A stretch of 62,814 bases of DNA, counting the filler, from Collodictyon triciliatum (taxonomy: Eukaryota): the NCBI GenBank assembly GCA_043381765.1. It is 5 parts of 5 records of this genome, joined end to end, with 100 filler letters (N's around TTAATTAATTAA, not from the genome) between each part and the next. Parts side by side here need not be neighbours in the genome. Positions count along the whole stretch, not along the records: positions 13,452 to 26,742 come from JBHJMP010002002.1; 4 more parts are not named here. One strand, 5' to 3'. The translations under genes were made by a program, and so were the position numbers. The notes under the pieces were generated by a model. That model was not told the DNA's origin, searched no databases, and was given only the letters and a program-made list of their open reading frames with translations. Positions 3,101-60,075 of the stretch are shown here, piece by piece; the stretch's first letter is position 1, and every line of letters begins with the position of its first letter.

Positions 3101-4770
3101 TTTTGATATCATCCGATATGAACGAAAGAGGAGGATATGATGACAAAGACCATTCATATGTGACATATACACAGTTGAGAGACGAAAATTTAGTTGAAGA
3201 TGAGTCAATCACTAGTATGGAACAACGATCAATTGTTTGAGGAGCTGACAGCAAAACCTTAATATCAGCTAGAATATGCCTACAGCTGACGAGTATTACA
3301 CCAGTGCTGGACGGCTCATCCCGGACGCTACCTTTTGAACGAATTTTACCAGGCACTAACCATATTGGATCCCCGATTCGTAATAATAACGGACAAGTCC
3401 GTCGAATAACAACAGTAGACTCATCAACCCACGCGCAAATAAGATTCTCATTGAGCGCAAAAACGAAAAAACATTTGAAATTTCCATGTAGATGTCCCAT
3501 GTCGGTTGATCTATCAAATTGTACAAATATGTCTTCGCCAAGATTGTCAAAAACAGCAGATAAAAGAAGAGGAGCAGGTAAGAACGACATTGAACTGTGA
3601 GATTGAGGACTAAAAGAACTAGAAATATATTGTGACTGAGATTGAGATTGAGATTGAGANNNNNNNNNNNNNNNNNNNNNNNNNNNNNNNNNNNNNNNNN
3701 NNNNNNNNNNNNNNNNNNNNNNNNNNNNNNNNNNNNNNNNNNNNNNNNNNNNNNNNNNNNNNNNNNNNNNNNNNNNNNNNNNNNNNNNNNNNNNNNNNNN
3801 NNNNNNNNNNNNNNNNNNNNNNNNNNNNNNNNNNNNNNNNNNNNNNNNNNNNNNNNNNNNNNNNNNNNNNNNNNNNNNNNNNNNNNNNNNNNNNNNNNNN
3901 NNNNNNNNNNNNNNNNNNNNNNNNNNNNNNNNNNNNNNNNNNNNNNNNNNNNNNNNNNNNNNNNNNNNNNNNNNNNNNNNNNNNNNNNNNNNNNNNNNNN
4001 NNNNNNNNNNNNNNNNNNNNNNNNNNNNNNNNNNNNNNNNNNNNNNNNNNNNNNNNNNNNNNNNNNNNNNNNNNNNNNNNNNNNNNNNNNNNNNNNNNNN
4101 NNNNNNNNNNNNNNCGTAAGTTCCTTTTGGACATTTAATGCAAGAAGAGATACTAATTGAAGCAAAATCAGGATTGAATGTTCCGTCTGAGCAAGTTTTG
4201 CATTGAGTTTGGCTTACATCATCATTATAAGTTCCCATTTCACATTCATGGCAATTAATGCTACTTGTTTTGTTCCTGTATGTACCTGAAGGGCATGATA
4301 GGCAACTTGCTTGTCCAGTTAATTGGTTGTATGTTCCAGCTGCACATGAAAGACATGTTGCTTGACCAGTAGATGGATTTTATGTGCCAGCAGGACATAA
4401 AGAACAAGACATGGCACCTGCAGCACTATAGCTTCCAGAAGGGCATAGTTGACAAGACTTTGACACTGAATCGTAAAACTGACCAGCAGTACAAAGGACC
4501 CAGATTTTGGTTGTTCCATTAACGCCTCCAGAAACAATTTTTGAGCCATCAGGAGTGACAGAAACACTTTGAACTTCATCAATATGACCAGTCAATGTGC
4601 GTATCGAATCATCTTGCCCTTCAACAAGGCACAATTGGCAATGGAGCATCAATCCTTAAAATATATTAATTAAAATTCTTTGTAATTTGAAGTCAATAAA
4701 ATTAAAAAAAAAAATTTGTAACTCACCCAACAGCAACAGAGCTGCAAACGACTTTGAGTTCAATCTCCTA
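1..4770 (-). CDS. Large surface/receptor-like protein: signal-like N-terminus, one WD40 repeat, Cys-rich (CxxCPxGTY) repeats, SQ repeat, REJ/PKD-like region, GAIN/GPS motif, second SQ repeat; runs off the window start (partial)
   Basis: Spliced minus-strand reading gives FAALLLLG, then TLTGHIDEVQSVSVTPDGSKIVSGG..TKIW (WD40), repeated CxxCPAGTY, and ORF 1158-4238 with REJ-type motifs (LDASKSYD, YYWSC, YxWEQVSG). A GT-AG intron at about 1243-1174 leads to an exon with CVYYDFRVGNWSDFGC..CKCNHLNTLAAF (GPS) that stays open to base 1. Contains an N gap (3660-4114) and one in-frame TAA (4380-4382). Confidence 0.8.
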
Positions 4771-5286
4771 AATTAATGTGATGAGTGTTTAAAGATTTAC
4801 ACAAAATTTTATAAAGTGTTGTAATTCCCAATCAACATATTTACTTAAAAATGTAATATTGAATCACTCTACTCAATTATCATTGATTGATTCAAAAATA
4901 CACAGATAGATTATCTACACATAATTTCAATAGATTCATAAATAAATCTCCATAAAATACTCTTATTCATATCCATTGATAAACATGACTATTTTATTTG
5001 ATGGTATAGTGACTTATTCAGTCAATTTACATATATTAAAAATGTAAAATAGTTATCATCTCAAAATAAATCGATATCAACTCACAAATTAGGATAAAAC
5101 TGATAAAAATTCATTAGTCTTCGGTTATATTTCTAGCAAGGTCATTTTTGTATCAGTTATAAGTAGATTTTGATTTGATGCTTATAGGAAAATCACTAAT
5201 CAATTATTAAATCAATCATTCCTAAGAAAAAATAAATCAATTTACGACATACAGAAAACAATATTAAATATAGGACTCGGGTTAGG

Positions 5287-13351: not shown

Positions 13352-13451
13352 NNNNNNNNNNNNNNNNNNNNNNNNNNNNNNNNNNNNNNNNNNNNTTAAT
13401 TAATTAANNNNNNNNNNNNNNNNNNNNNNNNNNNNNNNNNNNNNNNNNNNN
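13352..13451. other. Artificial contig-join spacer N44-TTAATTAATTAA-N44
   Basis: Exact 100-nt structure that recurs four times; the core has stops in all six frames. Confidence 0.97.
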
Positions 13452-13592
13452 ATAAAAAAAAGAGAATAAAAAAAAAGAGAATAAAAAAAAAGAGAATAAA
13501 AAAAAGAGAATAAAAAAAAGAGAATAAAAAAAAGAGAATAAAAAAAGAGAATACAATATAAAGTTAGAAAAAACGCAAGAAAGAAAAAACAC

Positions 13593-17004: not shown

Positions 17005-17061
17005 ATTCTTCCTTTCAATCTTTGAATCGAATAAAGGAAAAAAAATTCTTCCTTTCAATCT
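17005..17061 (+). mobile_element. Micro-insertion copy 1: TTGAATCGAATAAAGG(A7) at 17022-17044 with a 17-bp TSD
   Basis: ATTCTTCCTTTCAATCT at 17005-17021 and 17045-17061. Confidence 0.85.
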
Positions 17062-17113
17062 GTACAAGATAATGGAGGGCGGCATTTTCTAACGATATAA
17101 TACATACAATAGA

Positions 17114-17217
17114 CAAAACAACAACAAAACAACAACAAAACAACAACAAAACAACAACAAAACAACAACAAAACAACAACAAAACAACAACAAAACAACA
17201 ACAAAACAACAACAACA
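17114..17217 (+). repeat. (AAAACAACAAC)n minisatellite
   Basis: Direct. Confidence 0.9.
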
Positions 17218-17456
17218 AAAAAGAAACAAAACGCCAATTTTTTTATCTACCGACGTAAATACATGTACACCTATTAGATTATAAGAATAATAAAAATTCC
17301 CTATGAGGAAGAATCGTAAGTGAATATTGAATAACCATGATATTAGATTATACTAATTAATTTATTCCTTGTCCTGAGTGTACATGTCCGATTATGACAT
17401 TTGTCTGGTCTCCAGGGTAATTATCAGTGGTTATACTTTTTTTTCAAATAGTAGCC

Positions 17457-17975
17457 CTAGTTATGATAGTTTTCCTGAAGTAATGGGCTCTGAAAGGAAT
17501 GGTTGATCGTATGAAAGGTGGATTCTTGAGACTTTTTCATTTCCTGTCCCTTCTTAAGTTCAAAGTGAATTGCCCAATGCATCCCAGAACCAACAAGGGA
17601 GCTAGTCATCGAAAAGAAAAGTAGAAGTAGGGTCTGAGTCTTGTTAGTACCTCCGCTAGAATCATCGTCGTGGTTTGAGTTATCCCCTTCATCGGTATTC
17701 GAGGAATCTTCAATCTGCAAGGCAAAAGATGCAACAGAAAAAGCAAGGGAGGCGATGCCAAATAGATAGGCCTTATTCATCGCAGGTAGGGAATCTATTG
17801 CCCTTGCGTAATAGAAAGAGAAAGAGTACCCAACACTCGAAAGGATTGCCAAAATGAGAATGGCTAATCTCGATGCCTCTTTGTCATAGTAACTTCCCAC
17901 GAAGAAAGCGGCTAGACCCAGCACGATGGAAAGTCCCATGAAAGACAAGGATACATTTGTGGTATATCTCTGCAT
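17457..17975 (-). CDS. Small 4-TM protein of unknown function (paralog 3)
   Basis: 172-aa ORF with four hydrophobic helices and an acidic loop; a pyrimidine tract plus TGCAG at its 5' end suggests an upstream exon. Confidence 0.65.
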   Translation of the reverse strand: MQRYTTNVSLSFMGLSIVLGLAAFFVGSYYDKEASRLAILILAILSSVGYSFSFYYARAIDSLPAMNKAYLFGIASLAFSVASFALQIEDSSNTDEGDNSNHDDDSSGGTNKTQTLLLLFFSMTSSLVGSGMHWAIHFELKKGQEMKKSQESTFHTINHSFQSPLLQENYHN

Positions 17976-18644
17976 TCGGATAAAAAAGAAAGAAAGAAAA
18001 GAAGCGGCGATGAAATAATTTATTTATTAGTTATAGAATAAAACGATGGCCTTAGGATTTGGGACGTGGTGTGTATATGTCGATGGTACATATCTGCATG
18101 AAAAAATTACAAAGTGTCTTGTCTTCTTATGTTGGTAGTTATCTCCCTTGTTTTTCTGTCCAGTCGCATGATTAAATATGCACTCACAGCCACGTTTTCG
18201 ATCGAGTCCACTCGCTCTATCACTGAAAGGGGGCGCCTAATGCCGGCCTGGTCTTCCATAATTCACCCGTGAGTATCTAAGAGTCTGCTGTTTGAGAATT
18301 ATGCATATTGGATGTGGCTCAGACAAGTTCAACACTTGGCAAGCTGTGCAGACACAACGGGGCTGAGAGAGGCAGTATTTTGTGTGGGTGGCTGGAGGCT
18401 TTCATTATGACAGACTTTCAAGGACTTCGTTGTGGTGTTGGATCAAAGTGTGTTGGGTGCTGGGCAACAATCTGAAGTGCATTGAAATTGTGACATCTCT
18501 CCGTCCATACAAATAAGGACACGTGCCGAAAAAAGCGATTTTAGTTAATCATACCATTTATATCTATGAGACAACGATTGGCTTTTTTTCTTGGCTTTGA
18601 TTCGTTGCGCACCATCAAACCCATCAAACCACCCAACCATCAGA

Positions 18645-18811
18645 AAATTAAAACATTAAAACATTAAAACATTAAAACATTAAAACATTAAAACATTAAA
18701 ACATTAAAACATTAAAACATTAAAACATTAAAACATCAAAACATCAAAACATCAAAACATCAAAACATCAAAACATCAAAACATCAAAACATCAAAACAT
18801 CAAAACATCAA
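18645..18811 (+). repeat. (AAAACATT)n grading into (AAAACATC)n octamer repeat
   Basis: Direct. Confidence 0.9.
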
Positions 18812-18874
18812 GTCTCGTTTCCTCTACCCCATGGTCGCTCCTCACCACCATAGAATGCCCCATGAGACTATTTT

Positions 18875-18932
18875 ATCTTAATTCAAATACACTTTGAATC
18901 GAATAAAGGAAAAAAAATCTTAATTCAAATAC
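18875..18932 (+). mobile_element. Micro-insertion copy 2: ACTTTGAATCGAATAAAGG(A7) at 18891-18916 with a 16-bp TSD
   Basis: ATCTTAATTCAAATAC at 18875-18890 and 18917-18932. Confidence 0.85.
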
Positions 18933-19395
18933 TGCTTTTGGCACCATCTTGAAATAAACTGCCTCATCTCTGTAAATCAATAAGATAACTTTGAATCAAA
19001 TTTTTTTCAATATTGTTATTTTTAACCTTTTATTTGGTATATCCAATAAGTAACATTCGTATGGCGTGGGCTCTTGAAAAAAGTTTAGGCTCTCGTAAAG
19101 GGAAACTTATATGAATTTCTCAAGGCACACCAAAGAAGTTGGTTACTTTATCCCCTCCAGTACAAACTGTGAAGTATTTATCTAAAAAAAAAAGAAGGTA
19201 AGTATGTGTTTTATGAAGCCATATTTTGAAGTGATATTTTTTTTTTATTGGTTTTATGATTTCAATAAAATTCTTTACTTCACGGAGGGACGAGAGAAAC
19301 ATCCTAGGTATTTAATTTATCCATTTGGTAATCACCGTGGTAATGAGATCTCAGAAAAATGACATAGATGAAAGACCAGGGTATTCTGACTACTG

Positions 19396-19512
19396 AAAAA
19401 TAAAATAAAATAAAATAAAATAAAATAAAATAAAATAAAATAAAATAAAATAAAATAAAATAAAATAAAATAAAATAAAATAAAATAAAATAAAATAAAA
19501 CAAAACAAAACA
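19396..19512 (+). repeat. (AAAAT)n microsatellite
   Basis: Direct. Confidence 0.9.
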
Positions 19513-19604
19513 GATCATTATGAATCTAAGAGGGAAACCAAAAAATTGACACCCTTTATGATGCATGCTCTAATTTCATGTTTTCTGTAATAAAAAGAAT
19601 GCGG

Positions 19605-20588
19605 TTATGATTTTTTCGATAGCTCCAAAATAATTGCAGTGCAAATATAAAAGTTGAAAATGATGAAGTTGATAGAATTAGTTAAGATGAAATAAATTGA
19701 AAACCGAAAGGATTGGTGTTTTGATCTAAAGAGAAAGTGTCTCCTATATTTAGTTTGCAAATGATGGATACAAGTGGCCATAAGCATCCAATAAAAGCAA
19801 GGTTTGATGCTCCTCTCCATTGCACATTAAGTGTGTCTAGCATCATACACCACAGAGATACAACCATACCAAATACGCAGAAAACTATTCGAAAACCCCA
19901 GTTGCGTAAAAATCCAGACGAAACAACAATATTTAGCATTAAAACCATGAAATACTAGAAATCGAATGAATTTATCATATAACTCAACGTGATGGCATTG
20001 GAATCGAATAAAGGAAAAAAAAAAATAACTCAGCGTGGTGGCATTGGAAGTAATTGCCATTTGGATAGTCATTAGTAACACACTGAACAGAGAAATAGCC
20101 AAATATGTATAAAATACTTGATGTCCCAAACTCGTCCAAATTGAGAAAACGAAGCTTACTATGATTGCAGCAATAGTAAAACCAAGGGAGATTAAATTAT
20201 AGAGCTTTGACTTGAAAATCATCGCAAAAAATGGAAATTTATGGATTATAAAACGATGACAGAGTATATCTCTGGTATCATAGTATATGACCCTGTTTTC
20301 CATAATTCCAAATAAAAGATGCTTATCAGGGTCTGCATATGAAATAAAGTTTGACTCAACCTCAAACTTTTGTTTTGAACTCTCCCCATCATTCGCTCCT
20401 TCCGTTTTACTGCTTTTAGAATCTCTTTTCTCATGTATTTTGTCATAATGAAAGGATTCTTGGATTCCTTCTGTGTATTTCTTTTTTGAAAATAGTCCAG
20501 ACAAGGGTATTAATTGTGCATTTTTTTGATTTAACATGATTGGCAGATCATGTGTCGTGTACTTTTGAGACTTTATAATTAGCATCAC
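19605..20588 (-). pseudogene. Intronless multi-TM protein pseudogene (tandem paralog of 20585-21596)
   Basis: Frameshifted by micro-insertion copy 3. With the insertion removed it reads MINSFDF*YF, matching LSKSFNFWYT in the neighbour (TGG to TAG). Confidence 0.65.
19979..20049 (+). mobile_element. Micro-insertion copy 3: GAATCGAATAAAGG(A10-11) with a TSD of about 23 bp carrying 2 mismatches
   Basis: ATAACTCA(A/G)CGTG(A/G)TGGCATTGG starts at 19979 and 20025 (46-nt period). Confidence 0.85.
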
Positions 20589-21596
20589 GCCTCATCATCT
20601 GGATATGTTGCTGGTCTATTTCGTAGAAATTTGATAAAAAGGCAATTGTTGTGGACCTTTTTTCGTATTACATGTGCATAAAGTATTCGAAGTAAATACA
20701 AAAGGATCGTAATGATATTATCTAGAGCTTGCAATCTAAAGTCAATTACTTCAACCCCATGTGGTATCAAGTAAATCCTTTATATTTCAAAGTTGACCAG
20801 ACGAAAAGAAACGACGATAAATATTAGCAAATACGCCAGTATCCCCATGAATAAGTATATCTTCATCTGCCTGAGATGGTTTGCTGCGTGTACATCGTAT
20901 AATAATAGAAGAACCAAACTTAAGAAAGAGTGTACGCATGATAACACGTTTGATACAGTAATTCCATAGAGAAAAACCAAAAAAGTATGAAAGGAAAGAA
21001 CGTTGTAAACTGTATACCAAAAATTAAAGGATTTTGATAGTTCTTTGATGACTCCAACTCGAAGATAGGACGCGCTATGAAGAAAAAAAATTTGCGGCAC
21101 AAACGGCCTGTATAGGAGCTTAAGAATAAGGTAAAATAAGCTGGTTTCCTAGGAAAATAGATAAGCCATTTACTGTGTAGATAAACCAAAGGATTAAGCT
21201 AATGACAGACATGGGCAGTGATCGATAAAGTTTCAGGGTGAAGATCAATATCTTATCATTCTTTATCAATAATGTGATAACGGTACTCTTTCTTTCAATC
21301 AGCTTTATTTTTTTCTTGATGACGAGTTTGATTATTGAAGAGTTTTGATTCAGAATAAAGTCACTTTGTTGTTCTTTTGCTACTCCCCCGACTGCCTCAG
21401 ATACATTAGCTTCATGTATCTTAACTACTTCAAGTTCATTCTGCACAGCCTGTCCATTTTCTACATCTTCCAAATATTGTATAATAGGATGCCCCTTTTC
21501 GTAGAAGTCTTTCATATTGTTGGTCTTCGTGGTGTTGAGATCTTTCAATTCGCTTCCTCCCATCATGCTTGGTGTGGGTAATGAAATATTGTCCAC
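20585..21596 (-). pseudogene. Intronless multi-TM protein with a frameshift near 21120 and an in-frame TAA at 20780-20782
   Basis: Three consecutive hydrophobic ORF pieces (21120-21596, 20780-21100, 20585-20770); the last two share a frame across the TAA. Confidence 0.6.
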
Positions 21597-21671
21597 AAGA
21601 TTCTTTCCATATGTATCTGAACGACTTGACTGTAAGTCTTGTAAAGTATGTAGGACGCATATAATATCGTC

Positions 21672-21776
<105 letters not shown>

Positions 21777-22613
21777 ACCTAGACACGCTCCTTCGAGGTC
21801 AAAATCTCAAATAATATTGATATTCATCACTTTCTAATAGAACACAATTATTTTTTGAATATGAAATGATCTCATAAATACACAAATAAATAGAAAGAGA
21901 AAAAGAGAAAAAGAGAAAAAGAGAAAAAGAGAAAAAGAGAAAAATAGAAAAAGAGAAAAAGTTTAAGTATAGATATCACCAAAGGAGCTGTGATTTTCCC
22001 TGATATTTTCTGTCTATTAGTTGTTTCTCTTCTCTTGTATTCCGTTTTTCGTTCTTTCGCTAGCAGAAGGATTAGCAATGCAGCGTTTGAGCACAGCAGC
22101 CCAGTTTCCACACACCACCTCAGGGTGCCTGCATACGATTATGGCCAGCCTTTTGGGAAAGAACACAAATATCTGCTGGATATTCCAAAATTAGATAATC
22201 GCTTGTTGCCTGCTTTGCGTGCAATATTATAATATATATTAATGATGTATTGACATTATGTAATTATATTATTAAATGTCAAAGTACATGATATTGTGTA
22301 ATATATTAATTACTTATTATAAAATCCACATCTAAGCAAGGTCTGTAGTTGCAGGTTTTCGATGCGCATCCCCAAGGAAGCCTCCCAATGAGACGCGTTG
22401 GACAGAGAGCAAAGTAAATGAGCCTTTATTATGTCAATGGGAGTCAAGTGTAGCATTCCTTGATAAAAACAAAAAGCTCTTGCAAGCATGGAGCCTGTCT
22501 GCTTCATAGCCATCTTCAGAAAAAACAAAAACAAAAACAAAAACAAAAACAAAAACAAAAACAAAAACAAAANNNNNNNNNNAAAAACAAAAACAAAAAC
22601 AAAAACAAAAACA

Positions 22614-22644
<31 letters not shown>

Positions 22645-22737
22645 TAAACAAAAGCGAAACAAAAGCAAAGCAAACCAAAAAAAACACTACGCAGTCGATG
22701 CATGCAGACAACAAACATTTTTCTTTTCTTTTTCAGA

Positions 22738-26742: not shown

Positions 26743-26842
26743 NNNNNNNNNNNNNNNNNNNNNNNNNNNNNNNNNNNNNNNNNNNNTTAATTAATTAANN
26801 NNNNNNNNNNNNNNNNNNNNNNNNNNNNNNNNNNNNNNNNNN
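26743..26842. other. Artificial contig-join spacer
   Basis: N44-TTAATTAATTAA-N44. Confidence 0.97.
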
Positions 26843-39900: not shown

Positions 39901-42900
39901 CGGCTCCAAATCAATCCGTCCATATTCCGCATCATCAAATTATTTGGCTTCTTTCTATTATTTGCCCATATCACGGGATGCATTTGGTATATCATTCCTG
40001 ACGTCATGAACCATACGCACGATTGGAGAACAGCTCATAATCTAAGTATACACAAATTCACATATTACATTATTATTATTATTATTATTACTATTACTAT
40101 TACTATTACTATTACTATTACTATTACTATTACTATTACTATTACTATTACTATTACTATTACTATTACTATTACTANNNNNNNNNNNNNNNNNNNNNNN
40201 NNNNNNNNNNNNNNNNNNNNNNNNNNNNNNNNNNNNNNNNNNNNNNNNNNNNNNNNNNNNNNNNNNNNNNNNNNNNNNNNNNNNNNNNNNNNNNNNNNNN
40301 NNNNNNNNNNNNNNNNNNNNNNNNNNNNNNNNNNNNNNNNNNNNNNNNNNNNNNNNNNNNNNNNNNNNNNNNNNNNNNNNNNNNNNNNNNNNNNNNNNNN
40401 NNNNNNNNNNNNNNNNNNNNNNNNNNNNNNNNNNNNNNNNNNNNNNNNNNNNNNNNNNNNNNNNNNNNNNNNNNNNNNNNNNNNNNNNNNNNNNNNNNNN
40501 NNNNNNNNNNNNNNNNNNNNNNNNNNNNNNNNNNNNNNNNNNNNNNNNNNNNNNNNNNNNNNNNNNNNNNNNNNNNNNNNNNNNNNNNNNNNNNNNNNNN
40601 NNNNNNNNNNNNNNNNNNNNNNNNNNNNNNNNNNNNNNNNNNNNNNNNNNNNNNNNNNNNNNNNNNNNNNNNNNNNNNNNNNNNNNNNNNNNNNNNNNNN
40701 NNNNNNNNNNNNNNNNNNNNNNNNNNNNNNNNNNNNNNNNNNNNNNNNNNNNNNNNNNNNNNNNNNNNNNNNNNNNNNNNNNNNNNNNNNNNNNNNNNNN
40801 NNNNNNNNNNNNNNNNNNNNNNNNNNNNNNNNNNNNNNNNNNNNNNNNNNNNNNNNNNNNNNNNNNNNNNNNNNNNNNNNNNNNNNNNNNNNNNNNNNNN
40901 NNNNNNNNNNNNNNNNNNNNNNNNNNNNNNNNNNNNNNNNNNNNNNNNNNNNNNNNNNNNNNNNNNNNNNNNNNNNNNNNNNNNNNNNNNNNNNNNNNNN
41001 NNNNNNNNNNNNNNNNNNNNATAGAAATAGAAATAGAAATAGAAATAGAAATAGAAATAGAAATAGAAATAGAAATAGAAATAGAAATAGAAATAGAAAT
41101 AGAAATAGAAATAGAAATAGAAATAGAAATAGAAATAGAAATAGAAATAGAAATAGAAATAGAAATAGAAAAGATAGAAGCCTCCATAGTTACGACGCAG
41201 AGTATTCACAAAATGCTCATGCAACATGAAACAGGGGTTGGATGAAGCTGCTATCCTCGGCCGACTCCCGCCGATGCTCCGCTCCGAAGTGGCCCAATAC
41301 CTTTATCGAGAAACACTTTCAGAGGTATATCAGGCTCTAGCAAGATGGCTTCTGATAGTTAACATTTGTGCGTATACAGAAGTATATGATAGTAAATATG
41401 TTAAAATAATAATTCCTCTCAAATATAAACAGGTGGCCTTATTCCAAGGTTCGGAGGCGACGGGCTTAATGAACTCAATTGTATTGATGCTTCGACCTCA
41501 AATGGCATTGCCTGGGGAGTATATCATCCGACAAGGTTCGGATTATATGCTACTTTGGCACTTCTTCACTCTGTCGATTCACTAGTCTTTCTTTTCCTTT
41601 ATACTTCTCTACTACTTCCTTTTTACATTTCTTTTCTTTTTCTTTTGAAATTTGTGTTTTTCTCTCTCATTATAACGCTGAAGAATCGGCTCTTTCATCG
41701 AATTACGTGTATCTAAATGTCGACTTATCAACTCTAGGTGAAGTTGGGGAAGAAATGTACATCGTGCAAACTGGCCAGGTAGAAGTTGTAAGAGACGGGC
41801 GACTTGTGACAAAGTAAACAATACCTCTAATCAGTGAATTAGTTTCAAAGCAGAGTAAAAAATAATAATAATTTGAAAATACATAGATGAGTGTGAATTT
41901 CGCCACTATCATTTCTCTCAAATTCTCGAAAAAAAATAAATAGAATTGGTGCAAAATCTTACTTTGGAGAAATTAGCCTGATTTTTTCACAAAAACGAAC
42001 TGCGTCTGTTTTGGCTGCGGAGTATTGTGAATTGCTAATGCTTACAAAGGTAAAGACTTTATATCACACAAAAGAAGCCATTCTTTTAGAATAAATGAAC
42101 CACAGGACAACTACCGTTAGGTATGTTCAGATTTATCTCATTAACATCCTCGTTCTTACATTCTGTCAGAACGACTTGGAACAACTCCTGCGCATCTTTC
42201 CAGAATTTTCAAAATCAATGACTTCTCTCGCGAAGGAACGAATCCAGTGCGTCTCAAATCAATTATATTCGAGCTATTCAAACAAAAAAACACAACAACA
42301 AATAATAAGTTCATTAATTGCGATAAAGGGGTCGCGAACCTCCTCATTCGACTACGAAAAATTATTATAAGCTTGTGACCAACACACAGAAAATCGATGA
42401 CATATTTATTAAAAAAAGAAAAAAAAGAAAAAAAAGAAAAAAAAGAAAAAAAAGAAAAAAAAGAAAAAAAAGAGGGAAAACAGACAGGTCGATTTTCTTG
42501 TTCAATTCTTAATACATGCTTGGAACAGACAATCGAACGCAAATACTGACGGCAAAAAAGAGACACCGAAGCTTGGGTCACAAGGTTGGGACAAAGTCCG
42601 TCGCAAATTCCGAGATGTACTCTCCTCTGCTGCGAAAGACAGGTTCCTAGTTACTTTTTTTTTTTTGTTATATATATTTTCTCTAGTCTCCAGGCCAATG
42701 GTATCATCTTTATTAGCAGCCCATGAGTTTTTCTTTTCCTTTTCTCGATCTTATTATTATAAATTCCTTGTTACTTATCTACAAGTAACAACCCACCAAC
42801 CTCAGACATATAACCCAGACCATATACACGACCATCATGATATTAATAAGCTGATAGATTTTTGACCTTTTAATTCATATTTTAAATTTCCCATTCTATC

Positions 42901-46551: not shown

Positions 46552-46651
46552 NNNNNNNNNNNNNNNNNNNNNNNNNNNNNNNNNNNNNNNNNNNNTTAAT
46601 TAATTAANNNNNNNNNNNNNNNNNNNNNNNNNNNNNNNNNNNNNNNNNNNN
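46552..46651. other. Artificial contig-join spacer
   Basis: N44-TTAATTAATTAA-N44. Confidence 0.97.
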
Positions 46652-46888
46652 AAAAAGAAAAAAGAAAAAAGAAAAAAGAAAAAAGAAAAAAGAAAAAAGA
46701 AAAAAGAAAAAAGAAAAAAGAAAAAAGAAAAAAGAAAAAAGAAAAAAGAAAAAAAAAGGTATATACTACTCATCCGTAAATTCCCCTCTCGCTTTTCGAC
46801 ATAGCTAAAGTGAACACCTAATATTATCTTAATACAAAAAAAATGGATAATTTTCCAAACTAAATCGGTCGTCTTATTAATCTTCCAG

Positions 46889-49800
46889 CCGATTCTGTTA
46901 ATGGAAATGGCTCTTTTGAAGGTATCCAGGAAGAAGGTGCAGGTAATTCTCAGCGTGCTTCCAGGAGATTATCCAAATTCTCCACTCAACCAAGAACCGA
47001 AGAGCCTGCTCCAGAAAGAAGAAATTCGCGTTTTCATAGGTTCTCTTATTTAACCCCGAAATATACAAATAAAAATTTGATTGATTTTTTTATTTGTGTA
47101 TCGACATCGTTATGCATTTTTTTATTTTTCTTCTGAATAATGCATGTGGTTATCGCCTGAGAACATTTGCTTTAGAAGACTATCCTCCTTCAAGACTACA
47201 ATATTCAGCTCAAACAAGGATAAGGGTATGCACTCTATCTTTTATTGAGTACAAAACTAATTTATCAATAATTACCTGTACTTATTGGTCTTTCCCCTTA
47301 CTTTTCTCTTCTCACATTTTTCGTTGTGCTCATCAGTCAAACCCTTAACTTGCATGGTATAATAATATTTCACAAGTTTTTCTCCTATTTGCTCTTCGAG
47401 ACCATGAAGCTAAAAGCTACCAATCACTATTCTAGGAGGAGCTCGGGTTGATCTGAACTTTGACAGAGAACCTCCGCGAGGTGGGACGGATGAAGACGGA
47501 GCTGCCACATCGCCAGAGCAACACGATGCTGACAAGGTTTTCGTATCCATTCATTTCCATATGAGTTTTTTTTTCCTTTATTCGATTCAAAGATTCATTT
47601 CCATATGAGTTGATAATGCCTGATATACATGCAAAAAACTTTGAATACATTTAAAATGTTAACTTAATCGACTAAAGCACCACTTAATCCTCCCTTACAA
47701 TTGATCAGATGATGTGCACTTACACATATGCAAATGTATGACTAAGCTGCTGCACTTATCCAATAGAGCAATGTGAAGGCTTTCTGCAACAGACTATTTT
47801 CGGAGGAAAACAGAATGTCAGATGACGAGTTCCTTGATATTGTGGAGGAAAGTACACCAGAAGAAAGACGAGCAATATTACAGGAGGTTTTGAGGAAATT
47901 AAGACATACTAAATCGCTTCTAAATCTTACAAAGTCTATCAACGCCGAGCTCGACCATGAGGTTTGCATAAAATCTTTAATATTGACAGAAAGTGTTTGA
48001 TATATCGAACATACTACATTCCCTTTTTTTACGATTGCGTGGTAATTTTAAAATGCCACCCACAATATTAATATTTAGGGGAATAATTTGACTCGTTTTC
48101 TATTGTGTTTTTGAATTGTATTTTTCTCGTATTATTGACGCACAATACTCAATCATGCCTAGACTGCGATGAAAAGAATTGTAAATGAGGCGTGTGATTT
48201 CATGAACTCTGACCGCGCCTGCTTATTTAGCATTGATGAAAAACGAGGAGAGATTGCCAGCAAGGTGACACATATACCACCAAAATGTTCAAAAAATTAC
48301 CAACAACTTTAATCGTTCAAATAGCTCCTACCCAGAACAAAATCATCAGATTAATGCTCAAGATACTCATCGCTCGCTACAAACACTCATTGTACAGTAT
48401 CACCTGAAAATCTTTCGCAATTATACCTTTAAGGTTTTATCTGTTCGGAACAACCAAGATGAAATCAGATTTCCGATGGGAAGAGGTATCGCTGGTTCCG
48501 TGGCCAGCACAGGTCAAAGTGTCAATATTAAAGATGCTCACGAGTAATTTTCTTTTATCCATTTCATTATTTAGATCAAGATATATAAATGGAACGAGGT
48601 GTCTTTCGAAAAAGAAAACAAAATACCAACAAAATATCAGCACAAGAACCACTCACATTTTTCTAACTATAATAACATTTCTCTGCATTAATTATAATTG
48701 TTATTGGTGTAATTTTATTTCAATTTGGCAATGGAAACTCAAAATAATAAGATACTAATAATTATATCCATCTTATACAGGGACTCTCGTTTCAATCCAA
48801 CATTTGACCGCCTAACTGGGTACAGAACACGAAGTATTTTATGTATGTGCATTCGTGACATCACAGGGAAGAAAATTGCAGTCATGCAAGTTATCAACAA
48901 AATGGTCGGCGATGGGATATTTTATGAAGAAGATGAGCATGACATGGAGCTTTTTGCTGTTCAAGCTGCAAATTGCCTGCGAAATGCCCAGCTTTATGAA
49001 GCCGCCATCAAGGCATCTTTCTCAAAAACAAAACAAAACAAAACAAAACAAAACAAAACAAAACAAAACAAAACAAAACAAAACAAAACAAAACAAAACA
49101 AAACAAAACAAAACAAAACAAAACAAAACACTTCTAATTTTATTCATTTTGTCATATAACGTTTTTTTTTATTTGTTTATTTGCATCATCTTTATTTTTC
49201 GAAATCATCGCCATCGATACTACCATTTACTAGATTTTTTTAATTGCACAACTTTCATATCTTTAATCTGGTTTATCTAAAAGAATCTCGTTTATATGAC
49301 TTTCTCACTATCATTTTTCTCCTCAATCATCTTCTGTCACAGGCCCAACAAAAAATTGCTGTTCTTTTGGATGTTGCACGGCAGATGTCATCCAACCTTG
49401 ACCTCAACAGCCTTTGCAAACTCATCATGATGAAGTCCAAGGATTTACTCGAAGCTGATCGGTGCACTCTTTACCTTGGTACGTTTCCAGCATAGACGCG
49501 ACTATTCATTCATTCATTCAATCATTGTAGATGCAGCCTATGGACTAATTATCACACAAAAAACACCTACAGTTGACAAGGAAACAAATTCACTGTACTC
49601 CAAGTTTGCCGACCGGCAACCAGAAATTCGAGTCCCAATAGGCTCAGGAATATCAGGATACGTAGCACAATCTGGTATTTTGCCATTCCGTCATTTGTTA
49701 TGCGCAAGAATCGTTCGAGATAAATTTTAAGGCCTAAAAAAATTGAGATTAAAGACGTCTGATTCACTTTCTCAATTATATAATATAGCAAAAGTCGATG

Positions 49801-56400: not shown

Positions 56401-58768
56401 GTTCTGACTTGACCAACATCTCGCGCAAACGGAACATTCCAATCTGCCCACTTGTTCGCATAGGGAATATTATTGGATTTCCTTCGACTTTAGCCACAGC
56501 CAAGGTTGTAATGCTCGTTAGCCAGGTCGGGATTATGCTGATCTGATTTTCCAATACACGACTGCGATTAAAAAATGGCGCAAAAATACGATTAAAAGGG
56601 AATACATTATATCGATAGCGATGAATCTTGTAAATAGCCCATACTTGGTTGTTGCTCATATTGATGTTTACTAGTTTGTCCATAAAGCGGATTCCATAAG
56701 GGAATATACTTACCTACAAAGGGATATTTGTGTTGTGATCGGTAAAGAAAACTATGTTGGCTTGTTTTTACTTTTATGAAAATTTATAGCTTTGAAATCG
56801 GTGTTATTTCGATTGTTACAACAAGATATTAATTACTCTATATATGGTTAGTATCTCATAAAAAGTAAAGGTTTGGAAACCTTGTTGGATTCAATATTAA
56901 GTCTTGTCATACTGCTCAACATGGAGAACTCTTCTGGGAATTTAGATATCTAGGAGAGGTATTCATATGAATCGGCAAATTTAGCATTTTACTCTTGGTA
57001 TATGAGATGGATGCCACACGGCGCACTAACGTTGTTTGATGATACGTTTAATTGCTCAAGGGATGATAGTTGACACAATTCCCTTTGAAACTCTGATAGC
57101 TGGAAAGTGAAAGAGCACATCAGAGAAATGTTAACATTTAAAATAAAAATGTCCATGATTGCTATGGCAAAAAATGCGCAAGAAAAAAAAAGAAAAGAAA
57201 AAAAAAGGGGCTATTATTTAAATATTCTAAAATTGGATGAGAGGATGCTCTTCTTTCGTTTCATTTCTTTAAAATGCATCGAAATACCAGGTTGTTTCGT
57301 AATTCAAGCCTCTTCAGTTTTTTGAGGTTCATGATTGATGAAGGAAGGCTAGCGATCTAATTCGCAATTTCATTTTAATGTAAAATGGAATCATATTCCT
57401 TTCAATCTTTATTTGAAGGAATACTATAAATAGATGCGTTTTCAACATTATTACATATTATCAGAAAGAATATACGCCGACAATATTAAGCCACCTGGTT
57501 ATCGGATAAAACAAGGATTTCGAGCAAGGTCATATTCACAAATATATCAGGGATGCAAGAAATCTGTTCATAATAATTAATATAAAAATAGGATTAGTCT
57601 TCCTCCTTATTAGCAAGTTATTCAGACCCTATATAAAAACAATTTATGAATCATCGCAGTCTGCTACATATCATGTACACAACCTTATTTTCATATATCC
57701 AGAGTTCGCTGAGAAGGGTAAGTCGGCTTAGTTGGACGCATATTTCTTTCATCTTCAGTAAAAAGAAAAAAAAATTAAAATCATGAATTAAACGTTAGTC
57801 AACTGCCAAATCTTAACAGAACAAATATATAAATTGTGATGCAAAATCATTTAAAACAACTCGGCAAAAAGAATCATTCACAAAGTGCCAGTAGAAGAAC
57901 CAAAATAATAATAATAAAATAATAATAAAATAATAATAAAATAATAATAAAATAATAATAAAATAATAATAAAATAATAATAAAATAATAATAAAATAAT
58001 AATAAAATAATAATAAAATAATAATAAAATAATAATAAAATAATAATAAAATAATAATAAAATAATAATAAATAATAATAAATAATAATAAATAATAATA
58101 AATAATAATAAATAATAATAATAATAATAAATAATAATAAAATAATAATAAAATAATAATAAATAATAATAAAATAATAATAAAATAATAATAAAATAAT
58201 AATAAAATAATAATAAAATAATAATAAAATAATAATAAAATAATAATAAAATAATAATAAAATAATAATAAAATAATAATAAAATAATAATAAAATAATA
58301 ATAAAATAATAATAAAATAATAATAAAATAATAATAAAATAATAAAATAATAATAAAATAATAATATAATATAATAATAATAAAATAATAATAACAATAA
58401 TAATTATACCGCTTGCCAACATCTTCACCATCCTGCACAAAATTGAAAGGAAGAATAAAAAAAAAACCATAATAATTATACCGCAAATAAAAACATGGAG
58501 GCGGTTAAGTTTTACTAAAACAGCGTAAACCACAAACATCGTTCCTGTAGGAACTCAAAGCCTTCAGCTGGGTGAGAAGAGCCACTGCCGGGGGCATTTG
58601 GGGCATGGATCCGCCCTGAGAGAAGGTCAGAGCCAAATCCACACGGCTCTTCATGCGCTCTACAGTCATCATGAGCCGAGCAGCAAGCTCTTTCAAGGCT
58701 TCTTCCTCTTCCGATCTTTGCATGGGCGAAGCTGCGATTTCTGCGCTCTGTGGCGCTGTGCAAAACAT
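53454..58768 (-). CDS. Roco family protein: LRRs, Roc GTPase, COR, Ser-rich linker, C-terminal PH domain; no kinase
   Basis: Short LRR exons (e.g. LVNINMSNNQ); Roc motifs GEQEAGKSTLM, TVGAEI, IWDFGGQ..HPFF, LVGTHAD; COR motifs LHDAGFIVW, VFPSLLP; PH motifs SGYLW..WRKRFFVL..LKG and ERNRWIHAL. Confidence 0.92.
57902..58405 (+). repeat. (AATAATAATAA)n-type low-complexity array of about 500 bp in a Roco intron
   Basis: Direct; the overlapping F/Y/I/L ORFs are artefacts of the repeat. Confidence 0.92.
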
Positions 58769-59871: not shown

Positions 59872-59975
59872 AAACCATAGAATTAAACCATAGAATTAAA
59901 CCATAGAATTAAACCATAGAATTAAACCATAGAATTAAACCATAGAATTAAACCATAGAATTAAACCATAGAATT
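59872..59975 (+). repeat. (AAACCATAGAATT)n 13-mer tandem repeat
   Basis: Direct, about 8 copies up to the contig edge. Confidence 0.9.
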
Positions 59976-60075
59976 NNNNNNNNNNNNNNNNNNNNNNNNN
60001 NNNNNNNNNNNNNNNNNNNTTAATTAATTAANNNNNNNNNNNNNNNNNNNNNNNNNNNNNNNNNNNNNNNNNNNN
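59976..60075. other. Artificial contig-join spacer
   Basis: N44-TTAATTAATTAA-N44. Confidence 0.97.

Follow-up and report, generated by a model that had tools for sequence, protein, structure and literature searches.

In a stretch of 62,814 nucleotides from the eukaryote Collodictyon triciliatum (assembly GCA_043381765.1; this whole stretch, filler included, is called the window hereafter), the short string CTTTGAATCGAATAAAGG followed by seven to eleven adenines (A7-11) is present in four copies, each lying between direct repeats specific to its site. How can a unit of about 25 nucleotides be inserted again and again, with a fresh duplication of its target each time? As argued below, the inserts are probably extremely 5′-truncated copies, ending in a short A-tail, of an L1-like endonuclease-type non-long terminal repeat (non-LTR) retrotransposon, a long interspersed element (LINE), and would have been made by target-primed reverse transcription.

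First, the distribution of the string was examined in the whole window. The 15-mer GAATCGAATAAAGGA has exact matches at 17024, 18896 and 20001 on the plus strand and at 47574 on the minus strand. These four matches compare with 0.25 expected, and four or more were reached in none of 100 shuffles. A 22-mer including CTTT and A4, searched with up to three mismatches, gave the same four places (0.01 expected). Both searches agree on the four copies as located by a sequence-only reading of the window made before this analysis. Each copy, as that reading had it, lies between direct repeats of its own; these measure 17, 16, 25 (two mismatches) and 19 bp for copies 1 to 4, the third having been given as about 23 bp. 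Because the window is made of five contigs joined by N44-TTAATTAATTAA-N44 spacers, copy 4 does sit, as had been claimed, on another contig.

The junctions were then compared (Table 1). At the 5′ side, 2, up to 3, 3 and 0 bases are common to the insert and the duplication in copies 1 to 4, respectively. In copy 1 these are the preceding CT. In copy 2, the part derived from the 3′ untranslated region (3′UTR) of the LINE reaches 22 nt if the TAC common to the duplication is counted, and in copy 3 the final GAA of the upstream duplication also belongs to the element. The tails measure A7-8, A7-8, A10-11 and A7-9. All four window copies have A as their first duplicated base, as do three loci from public runs described below. 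Therefore, the bottom-strand primer would end in T or TT and could pair with the A-run. A pyrimidine precedes the duplication in the four window copies, which alone is not significant. The two differences between the duplications of copy 3 (19987 and 19992 as compared to 20033 and 20038) are both A/G transitions, with A upstream and G downstream, and may reflect age or error-prone fill-in. An open plus-strand frame is followed by a GT 12 nt before copy 4, which is also 1.1 kb upstream of an exon with a GAF domain; from this we infer that the copy is probably intronic and antisense.

Table 1. Inserts, target-site duplications and other features of the window
Feature	Positions	Strand	Description
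Copy 1, upstream target-site duplication	17005-17021	+	ATTCTTCCTTTCAATCT, 17 bp, exact repeat of 17045-17061
Copy 1, insert	17022-17044	+	TTGAATCGAATAAAGG + A7; 16-18 nt of LINE 3′UTR
Copy 1, downstream target-site duplication	17045-17061	+	17 bp, perfect
Copy 2, upstream target-site duplication	18875-18890	+	ATCTTAATTCAAATAC, 16 bp, perfect
Copy 2, insert	18891-18916	+	ACTTTGAATCGAATAAAGG + A7; 19 nt of 3′UTR
Copy 2, downstream target-site duplication	18917-18932	+	16 bp, perfect
Copy 3, upstream target-site duplication	19979-20003	+	25 bp, two A/G differences from downstream duplication
Copy 3, insert	20004-20024	+	TCGAATAAAGG + A10; 11-14 nt of 3′UTR
Copy 3, downstream target-site duplication	20025-20049	+	25 bp, two mismatches
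Copy 4, target-site duplication, downstream in element orientation	47549-47567	-	19 bp, perfect
Copy 4, insert	47568-47592	-	CTTTGAATCGAATAAAGG + A7; 18 nt of 3′UTR, 5′ junction without shared bases
Copy 4, target-site duplication, upstream in element orientation	47593-47611	-	19 bp, perfect
Other short A-tailed insert	58393-58484	+	52 nt ending ...TTGAAAGGAAGAATAAA + A; 20-bp repeats, one mismatch
N44-TTAATTAATTAA-N44 spacers	13352-13451, 26743-26842, 46552-46651, 59976-60075		Window consists of five contigs
Other N runs inside contigs	3660-4114, 22573-22582, 40178-41020
Microsatellite arrays, among others	13452-13553, 17113-17215, 19397-19510, 21672-21775, 46652-46757, 49025-49130, 59872-59975

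The architecture was also searched for independently of the string. An exact-repeat scan sought the order repeat, insert, A-run, repeat, and the same scan of the mirror-reversed window served as a control. The scan returned nine rows, six in microsatellite arrays and three corresponding to copies 1, 2 and 4. All seven control rows fell in microsatellite arrays, so that non-microsatellite rows numbered three in the window and none in the control. The four-copy architecture is real and not due to chance. A second scan, tolerant of mismatches and able to detect every A-tailed insert of 0-400 nt that has a duplication of at least 12 bp, returned 15 rows: eight microsatellite rows, two weak ones and five corresponding to the four copies and to one more insert, at 58393-58484. 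The eight rows (13459-13553, 33516, 62764) were dropped because they lie within microsatellite arrays. The weak rows at 5064 and 22172, with repeats of 14-15 nt carrying two mismatches around inserts of 152 and 306 nt, were judged to be chance occurrences. A long candidate of 4 kb at 22671, whose repeats are only A-rich low-complexity sequence and which has a PP2C-like open reading frame (ORF) inside, was set aside. The additional insert at 58393-58484 has the same architecture as the four copies but a different sequence, and occurs once in the window. Its last bases resemble the terminus of the main family (TTGAA...GAATAAA); a related LINE may have supplied this tail.

In order to identify a parent element, metagenome contigs were scanned for a 20-mer of the string. 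Nine stretches were found, and a single one, on the reverse strand of a 1157-bp contig (L001), carried the full CTTTGAATCGAATAAAGG followed by A10; the eight others, without the CTTT prefix, were set aside as chance matches. L001 reads ...TACACTTTGAATCGAATAAAGG and then A10. Upstream of the string lies the end of an ORF matching zf-RVT (PF13966), the 'zinc-binding in reverse transcriptase' domain, with 32.4 bits for a cut-off of 27.5 (E 1.5e-7). This ORF is separated from the A-run by a 3′UTR of 93 nt. The G+C content is 51.5% up to the A-run and 28.7% beyond it, and the string has no duplicated word of at least 7 nt at its two sides. This composition break at the A-run, together with the lack of a flanking duplication, argues that the string in L001 is the element's own terminus rather than a separate insert. 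The window copies match this terminus in blastn over 26-30 nt at 96-100% identity (26/26 for copy 1, 30/30 for copy 2 and 27/27 for copy 4). The match of copy 2 takes in the TACA before CTTTG and so includes the preceding LINE base.

No longer relative of the L001 ORF came out of a word-indexed search of proteins; a full HMMER (phmmer) search then returned 14 matches, ten short (72-309 aa) and four long (1226-1275 aa). Six of the short relatives were looked up (P0002, P0003, P0004, P0006, P0007 and P0014); their contigs, from metagenome or genome collections, measure 561-1828 bp. All four long relatives, which are 25-38% identical to L001 over the shared end, carry Exo_endo_phos and RVT_1, and this is the layout of an L1-like ORF2. 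As judged from these alignments, the string is the predicted 3′ terminus of an L1-like non-LTR retrotransposon. At about 561-564 of its reverse strand, L001 shows a frameshift as compared to P0002 and P0016, both of which read through. L001 is a decayed copy, and more intact ones are present elsewhere. Among prokaryote genomes, all ten motif matches were set aside, none having both the CT prefix and an A-run of seven or more; several of them have one bacterial coding context in common. Viral contigs contained no match to the motif and no relative of protein P0016.

Longer copies, carrying a reverse transcriptase or endonuclease ORF, had been put forward as the thing to look for. L001 does join the string to a zf-RVT ORF end, but the window holds no such copy: blastn of all 1157 nt of L001 finds the four tails only, and tblastn of 14 LINE proteins against the window gave nothing below E 0.08. 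Further short copies were however found elsewhere. One is in P0014, a metagenome protein of 136 aa that is itself a fragment of a LINE ORF end. As compared to three relatives, it carries a 14-residue insert, EREINIFFSFIQFK, in which FFSFI(R/Q)FK corresponds to the translation of the antisense element in the window. EREIN is duplicated, and the extra 42 nt have the size of one duplication plus one element. These three features indicate a nested antisense ultra-short copy that is read through; the copied part of the 3′UTR is 17-18 nt.

The contigs of four coded public runs (X1-X4) were compared with 19511-21671, the region of copy 3. For the public runs listed as sharing words with the window, all shares are at most 0.19 and may largely reflect microsatellite words; no RNA run is among them. 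Contigs from X1, X2 and X4 match at 19991-20029 only, that is the element and a few bases, with both flanks unlike the window. Three distinct flank pairs were observed, and therefore at least three loci. In all three pairs, the six or seven letters after the A-run (ACAATCA, AACTCTG, CATGAT) recur within 12 letters before the matched block, indicating that these loci have duplications of their own. None of the three has an upstream flank resembling the L001 3′UTR. Their mismatch counts of 3, 4 and 4 would be compatible with the canonical CTTTG start. No X3 contig matched 19511-21671, and no contig of the four runs bridges the site of copy 3. Overall, there are at least eight independent sites (four in the window, one in P0014 and at least three run loci) for one 3′-complete long copy, L001.

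The same comparison gave three side observations. A 151-nt X4 contig, labelled as freshwater metagenome, is identical to 20463-20613, which indicates that the organism of the window or a close relative was in the X4 sample. Another X4 contig, at 20756-20904, shows 13 differences from the window. At 19581-19627 (47 nt), X2 and X4 contigs match with five mismatches and the same borders, their flanks being unlike the window; the stretch is perhaps a further short repeat or a small conserved segment.

These data are consistent with the following course of events, drawn by analogy with established L1 biology. The endonuclease of the element would nick the bottom strand opposite a pyrimidine|A step of the top strand. 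The freed end, T or TT, would pair with a short oligo(A) at the 3′ end of the RNA. Reverse transcriptase would then copy the A-run and go no further than the last 11-22 nt of the 3′UTR, most often 18. The top strand would be cut 16-25 bp downstream and its end joined to the short complementary DNA (cDNA) through 0-3 bases of microhomology, after which fill-in would yield the site-specific duplication. The inserted string is identical to the terminus of an element with a LINE ORF end, and the A-tails of the inserts (A7-11, with A10 in L001) stand directly before duplications of variable length. This identity, these tails and these duplications support what the sequence-only reading had already proposed, namely that a non-LTR retrotransposon was inserted by target-primed reverse transcription. 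The further idea of a LINE that stops right after its terminal hairpin stands in one part, since the string does end the LINE 3′UTR in L001, and fails in the other, as the hairpin could not be recovered (see below).

Several observations weigh against such a truncation pathway. The copied 3′UTR lengths are 16-18, 19-22, 11-14 and 18 nt in copies 1 to 4, with a mode of 18. If truncation were memoryless, a length of 11-22 nt would have a probability of 0.265 at best, giving at most 0.005 for four copies out of four. Therefore, the 5′ ends are non-randomly clustered, too tightly for simple random abortion. A common 5′ point at CTTTG, as had been described, thus survives as approximate clustering at 11-22 nt and not as one exact point, since lengths differ among copies. 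RNA structure does not account for the early stop. The 25-26-nt units have minimum free energies of 0, -0.3 and 0 kcal/mol, not better than shuffles, and the 3′UTR fold, calculated on the last 155 nt of the L001 element, gave a z score of -0.57. Neither the terminal hairpin nor its role in halting the enzyme is borne out by these values. In Rfam, L001 gave merely two sub-threshold matches to long non-coding RNAs, on the opposite strand. Moreover, the parent assignment rests on the single 1157-bp metagenome contig, which is too short to include a reverse transcriptase or endonuclease domain; these are seen only in the 25-38% identical relatives. The 61 kb of the window showed no LINE body, and the 5′ ends of the run loci were deduced from mismatch counts, not from aligned letters.

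The tight 5′ ends, which memoryless truncation fits poorly, speak for another origin of the template, which we consider possible though rather doubtful: a discrete short RNA, made of the last ~18 nt of the LINE transcript and oligo(A), copied to its end. Such an RNA might be made by endonucleolytic or small-RNA-guided cleavage of the 3′UTR, perhaps by host slicing, or be a 3′ footprint protected by protein, perhaps after nuclease trimming to the footprint of the enzyme. The family would then be a minimal non-autonomous retroposon riding on the LINE enzyme. A length of exactly 18 nt fits copy 1 (16-18), copy 4 (18, no shared bases) and P0014 (17-18), and the counts at the three run loci would fit a CTTTG start. 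The mode at exactly 18 and the junction of copy 4, where microhomology is lacking, speak for this possibility. The one extra A of copy 2 could have been added without a template once the enzyme had run off the end. However, copy 2 has the LINE's own preceding base, and copy 3, with 11-14 nt, is shorter. The 52-nt insert of other sequence but same architecture suggests a general tendency to short products, and 18 nt is too short for a promoter, of which Rfam finds none. The minimal retroposon, one of the two options of the sequence-only reading, is weakened but keeps some probability, the 5′ ends being tighter than memoryless truncation allows. Because of the extra LINE base of copy 2, the shorter copy 3 and the 52-nt insert, we lean slightly towards an early timed abort on full-length LINE RNA, followed by 5′ joining, rather than a pre-shortened template.

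Two other origins have very little in their favour. The inserts could be retrocopies of a polyadenylated host RNA, or messenger RNA (mRNA) 3′ end, merely resembling the L001 terminus; AATAAA stands two bases before the A-run, as at an mRNA end. Yet the L001 string is contiguous with a LINE ORF end and 3′UTR, without flanking repeats, and the composition break falls at the A-run. The source terminus is thus not that of a host-gene transcript, as a processed pseudogene would have it, and we judge this origin highly improbable. Equally hard to credit are filler DNA from endonuclease-independent double-strand-break repair and an artefact of adapters or assembly. The shortness of the inserts and the fragmented short-read assembly would fit them, but the 16-25 bp duplications at every copy (four of four) point to staggered nicks rather than breaks with loss, endonuclease-independent insertion having no duplication and often a target deletion, and the string recurs, with other flanks each time, in L001 as an independent metagenome contig, in protein P0014 and in contigs of X1, X2 and X4.

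We then compared the inserts with known systems. In the passages of the human L1 study that treat them, duplications peak at 14-16 bp and microhomology is found in about 80% of truncated L1 (PMC2912911). The present copies resemble the truncated L1 of those passages by their A-tail, variable site-specific duplications (here 16-25 bp), 0-3 bases of 5′ microhomology and a target starting with A (PMC2912911). They differ in that the body is 11-22 nt with ends clustered near 18, whereas L1 ends spread over kilobases, in that the tails are short (A7-11) even where the duplications are perfect, and in that the window has four ultra-short copies and no longer one. For a poly(T) insert of about 120 bp in human NF1, the authors proposed that an Alu, an L1 or a processed pseudogene had been severely truncated (PMC3219598). 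As described there, it shares with the present inserts an L1-endonuclease-dependent pathway and a product that is little but tail (PMC3219598). In contrast, the NF1 case is one sporadic event with a long tail and no body, while here an 18-nt body is present at at least eight sites.

Short interspersed elements (SINEs) were considered too, as these can share the 3′ tail of a partner LINE. The present inserts resemble them by their dependence on a LINE enzyme and by a 3′ end common with the LINE. However, SINEs have a head derived from a small RNA (tRNA, 5S or 7SL) with an internal RNA polymerase III (Pol III) promoter, whereas the unit here is 18 nt and an A-run. Since it is without a promoter-bearing head, the short unit is not a SINE. 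A matching Pol III small-RNA gene, which had been suggested as a possible source, found no support, Rfam giving no window match at gathering score. Platy-1, described in the relevant passage of its report as the shortest primate SINE, measures about 100 bp (PMC4864456), and by this figure the ~25-nt unit is roughly four times shorter. In a literature search with supplements excluded, the motif was found in no paper. A keyword search of the same scope gave no description of a recurrent ~25-nt LINE-tail family, and this argues only weakly that none has been described. Sporadic cases of extreme truncation are known; the present inserts stand apart as a ~25-nt unit that recurs and has clustered ends.

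Inserts of ~25 nt are below the size visible to repeat annotation or structural-variant calling. Because they escape annotation, a LINE could leave far more integration events than its annotated copies suggest. Each copy adds AATAAA and an A-run, a potential polyadenylation signal and a possible seed for the A-rich microsatellites that crowd the window. Judging from the clustering of the 5′ ends, target-primed reverse transcription may have a defined checkpoint at an early stage, or its RNA a defined end. If the template were indeed a discrete RNA, this would be the shortest recurrent retroposed unit known, and each copy would be the harmless 'scar' of a retrotransposition attempt disarmed after priming. 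If lengths spread ordinarily over the whole genome, the finding shrinks to routine truncation.

Finally, the setting of the inserts was described. The window is eukaryotic, with 38% G+C, and its ORFs carry REJ, Roc-COR, PP2C, cNMP-binding and GAF domains. The density of A-rich microsatellites is very high; arrays mostly measure 100-115 bp at 99-100% identity, and several are at contig ends. The arrays suggest that the assembly was limited by read length, true lengths being probably longer. The (TTG)35 array at 21672-21775 corresponds to about 34 glutamines in a minus-strand ORF at 21120-21806.

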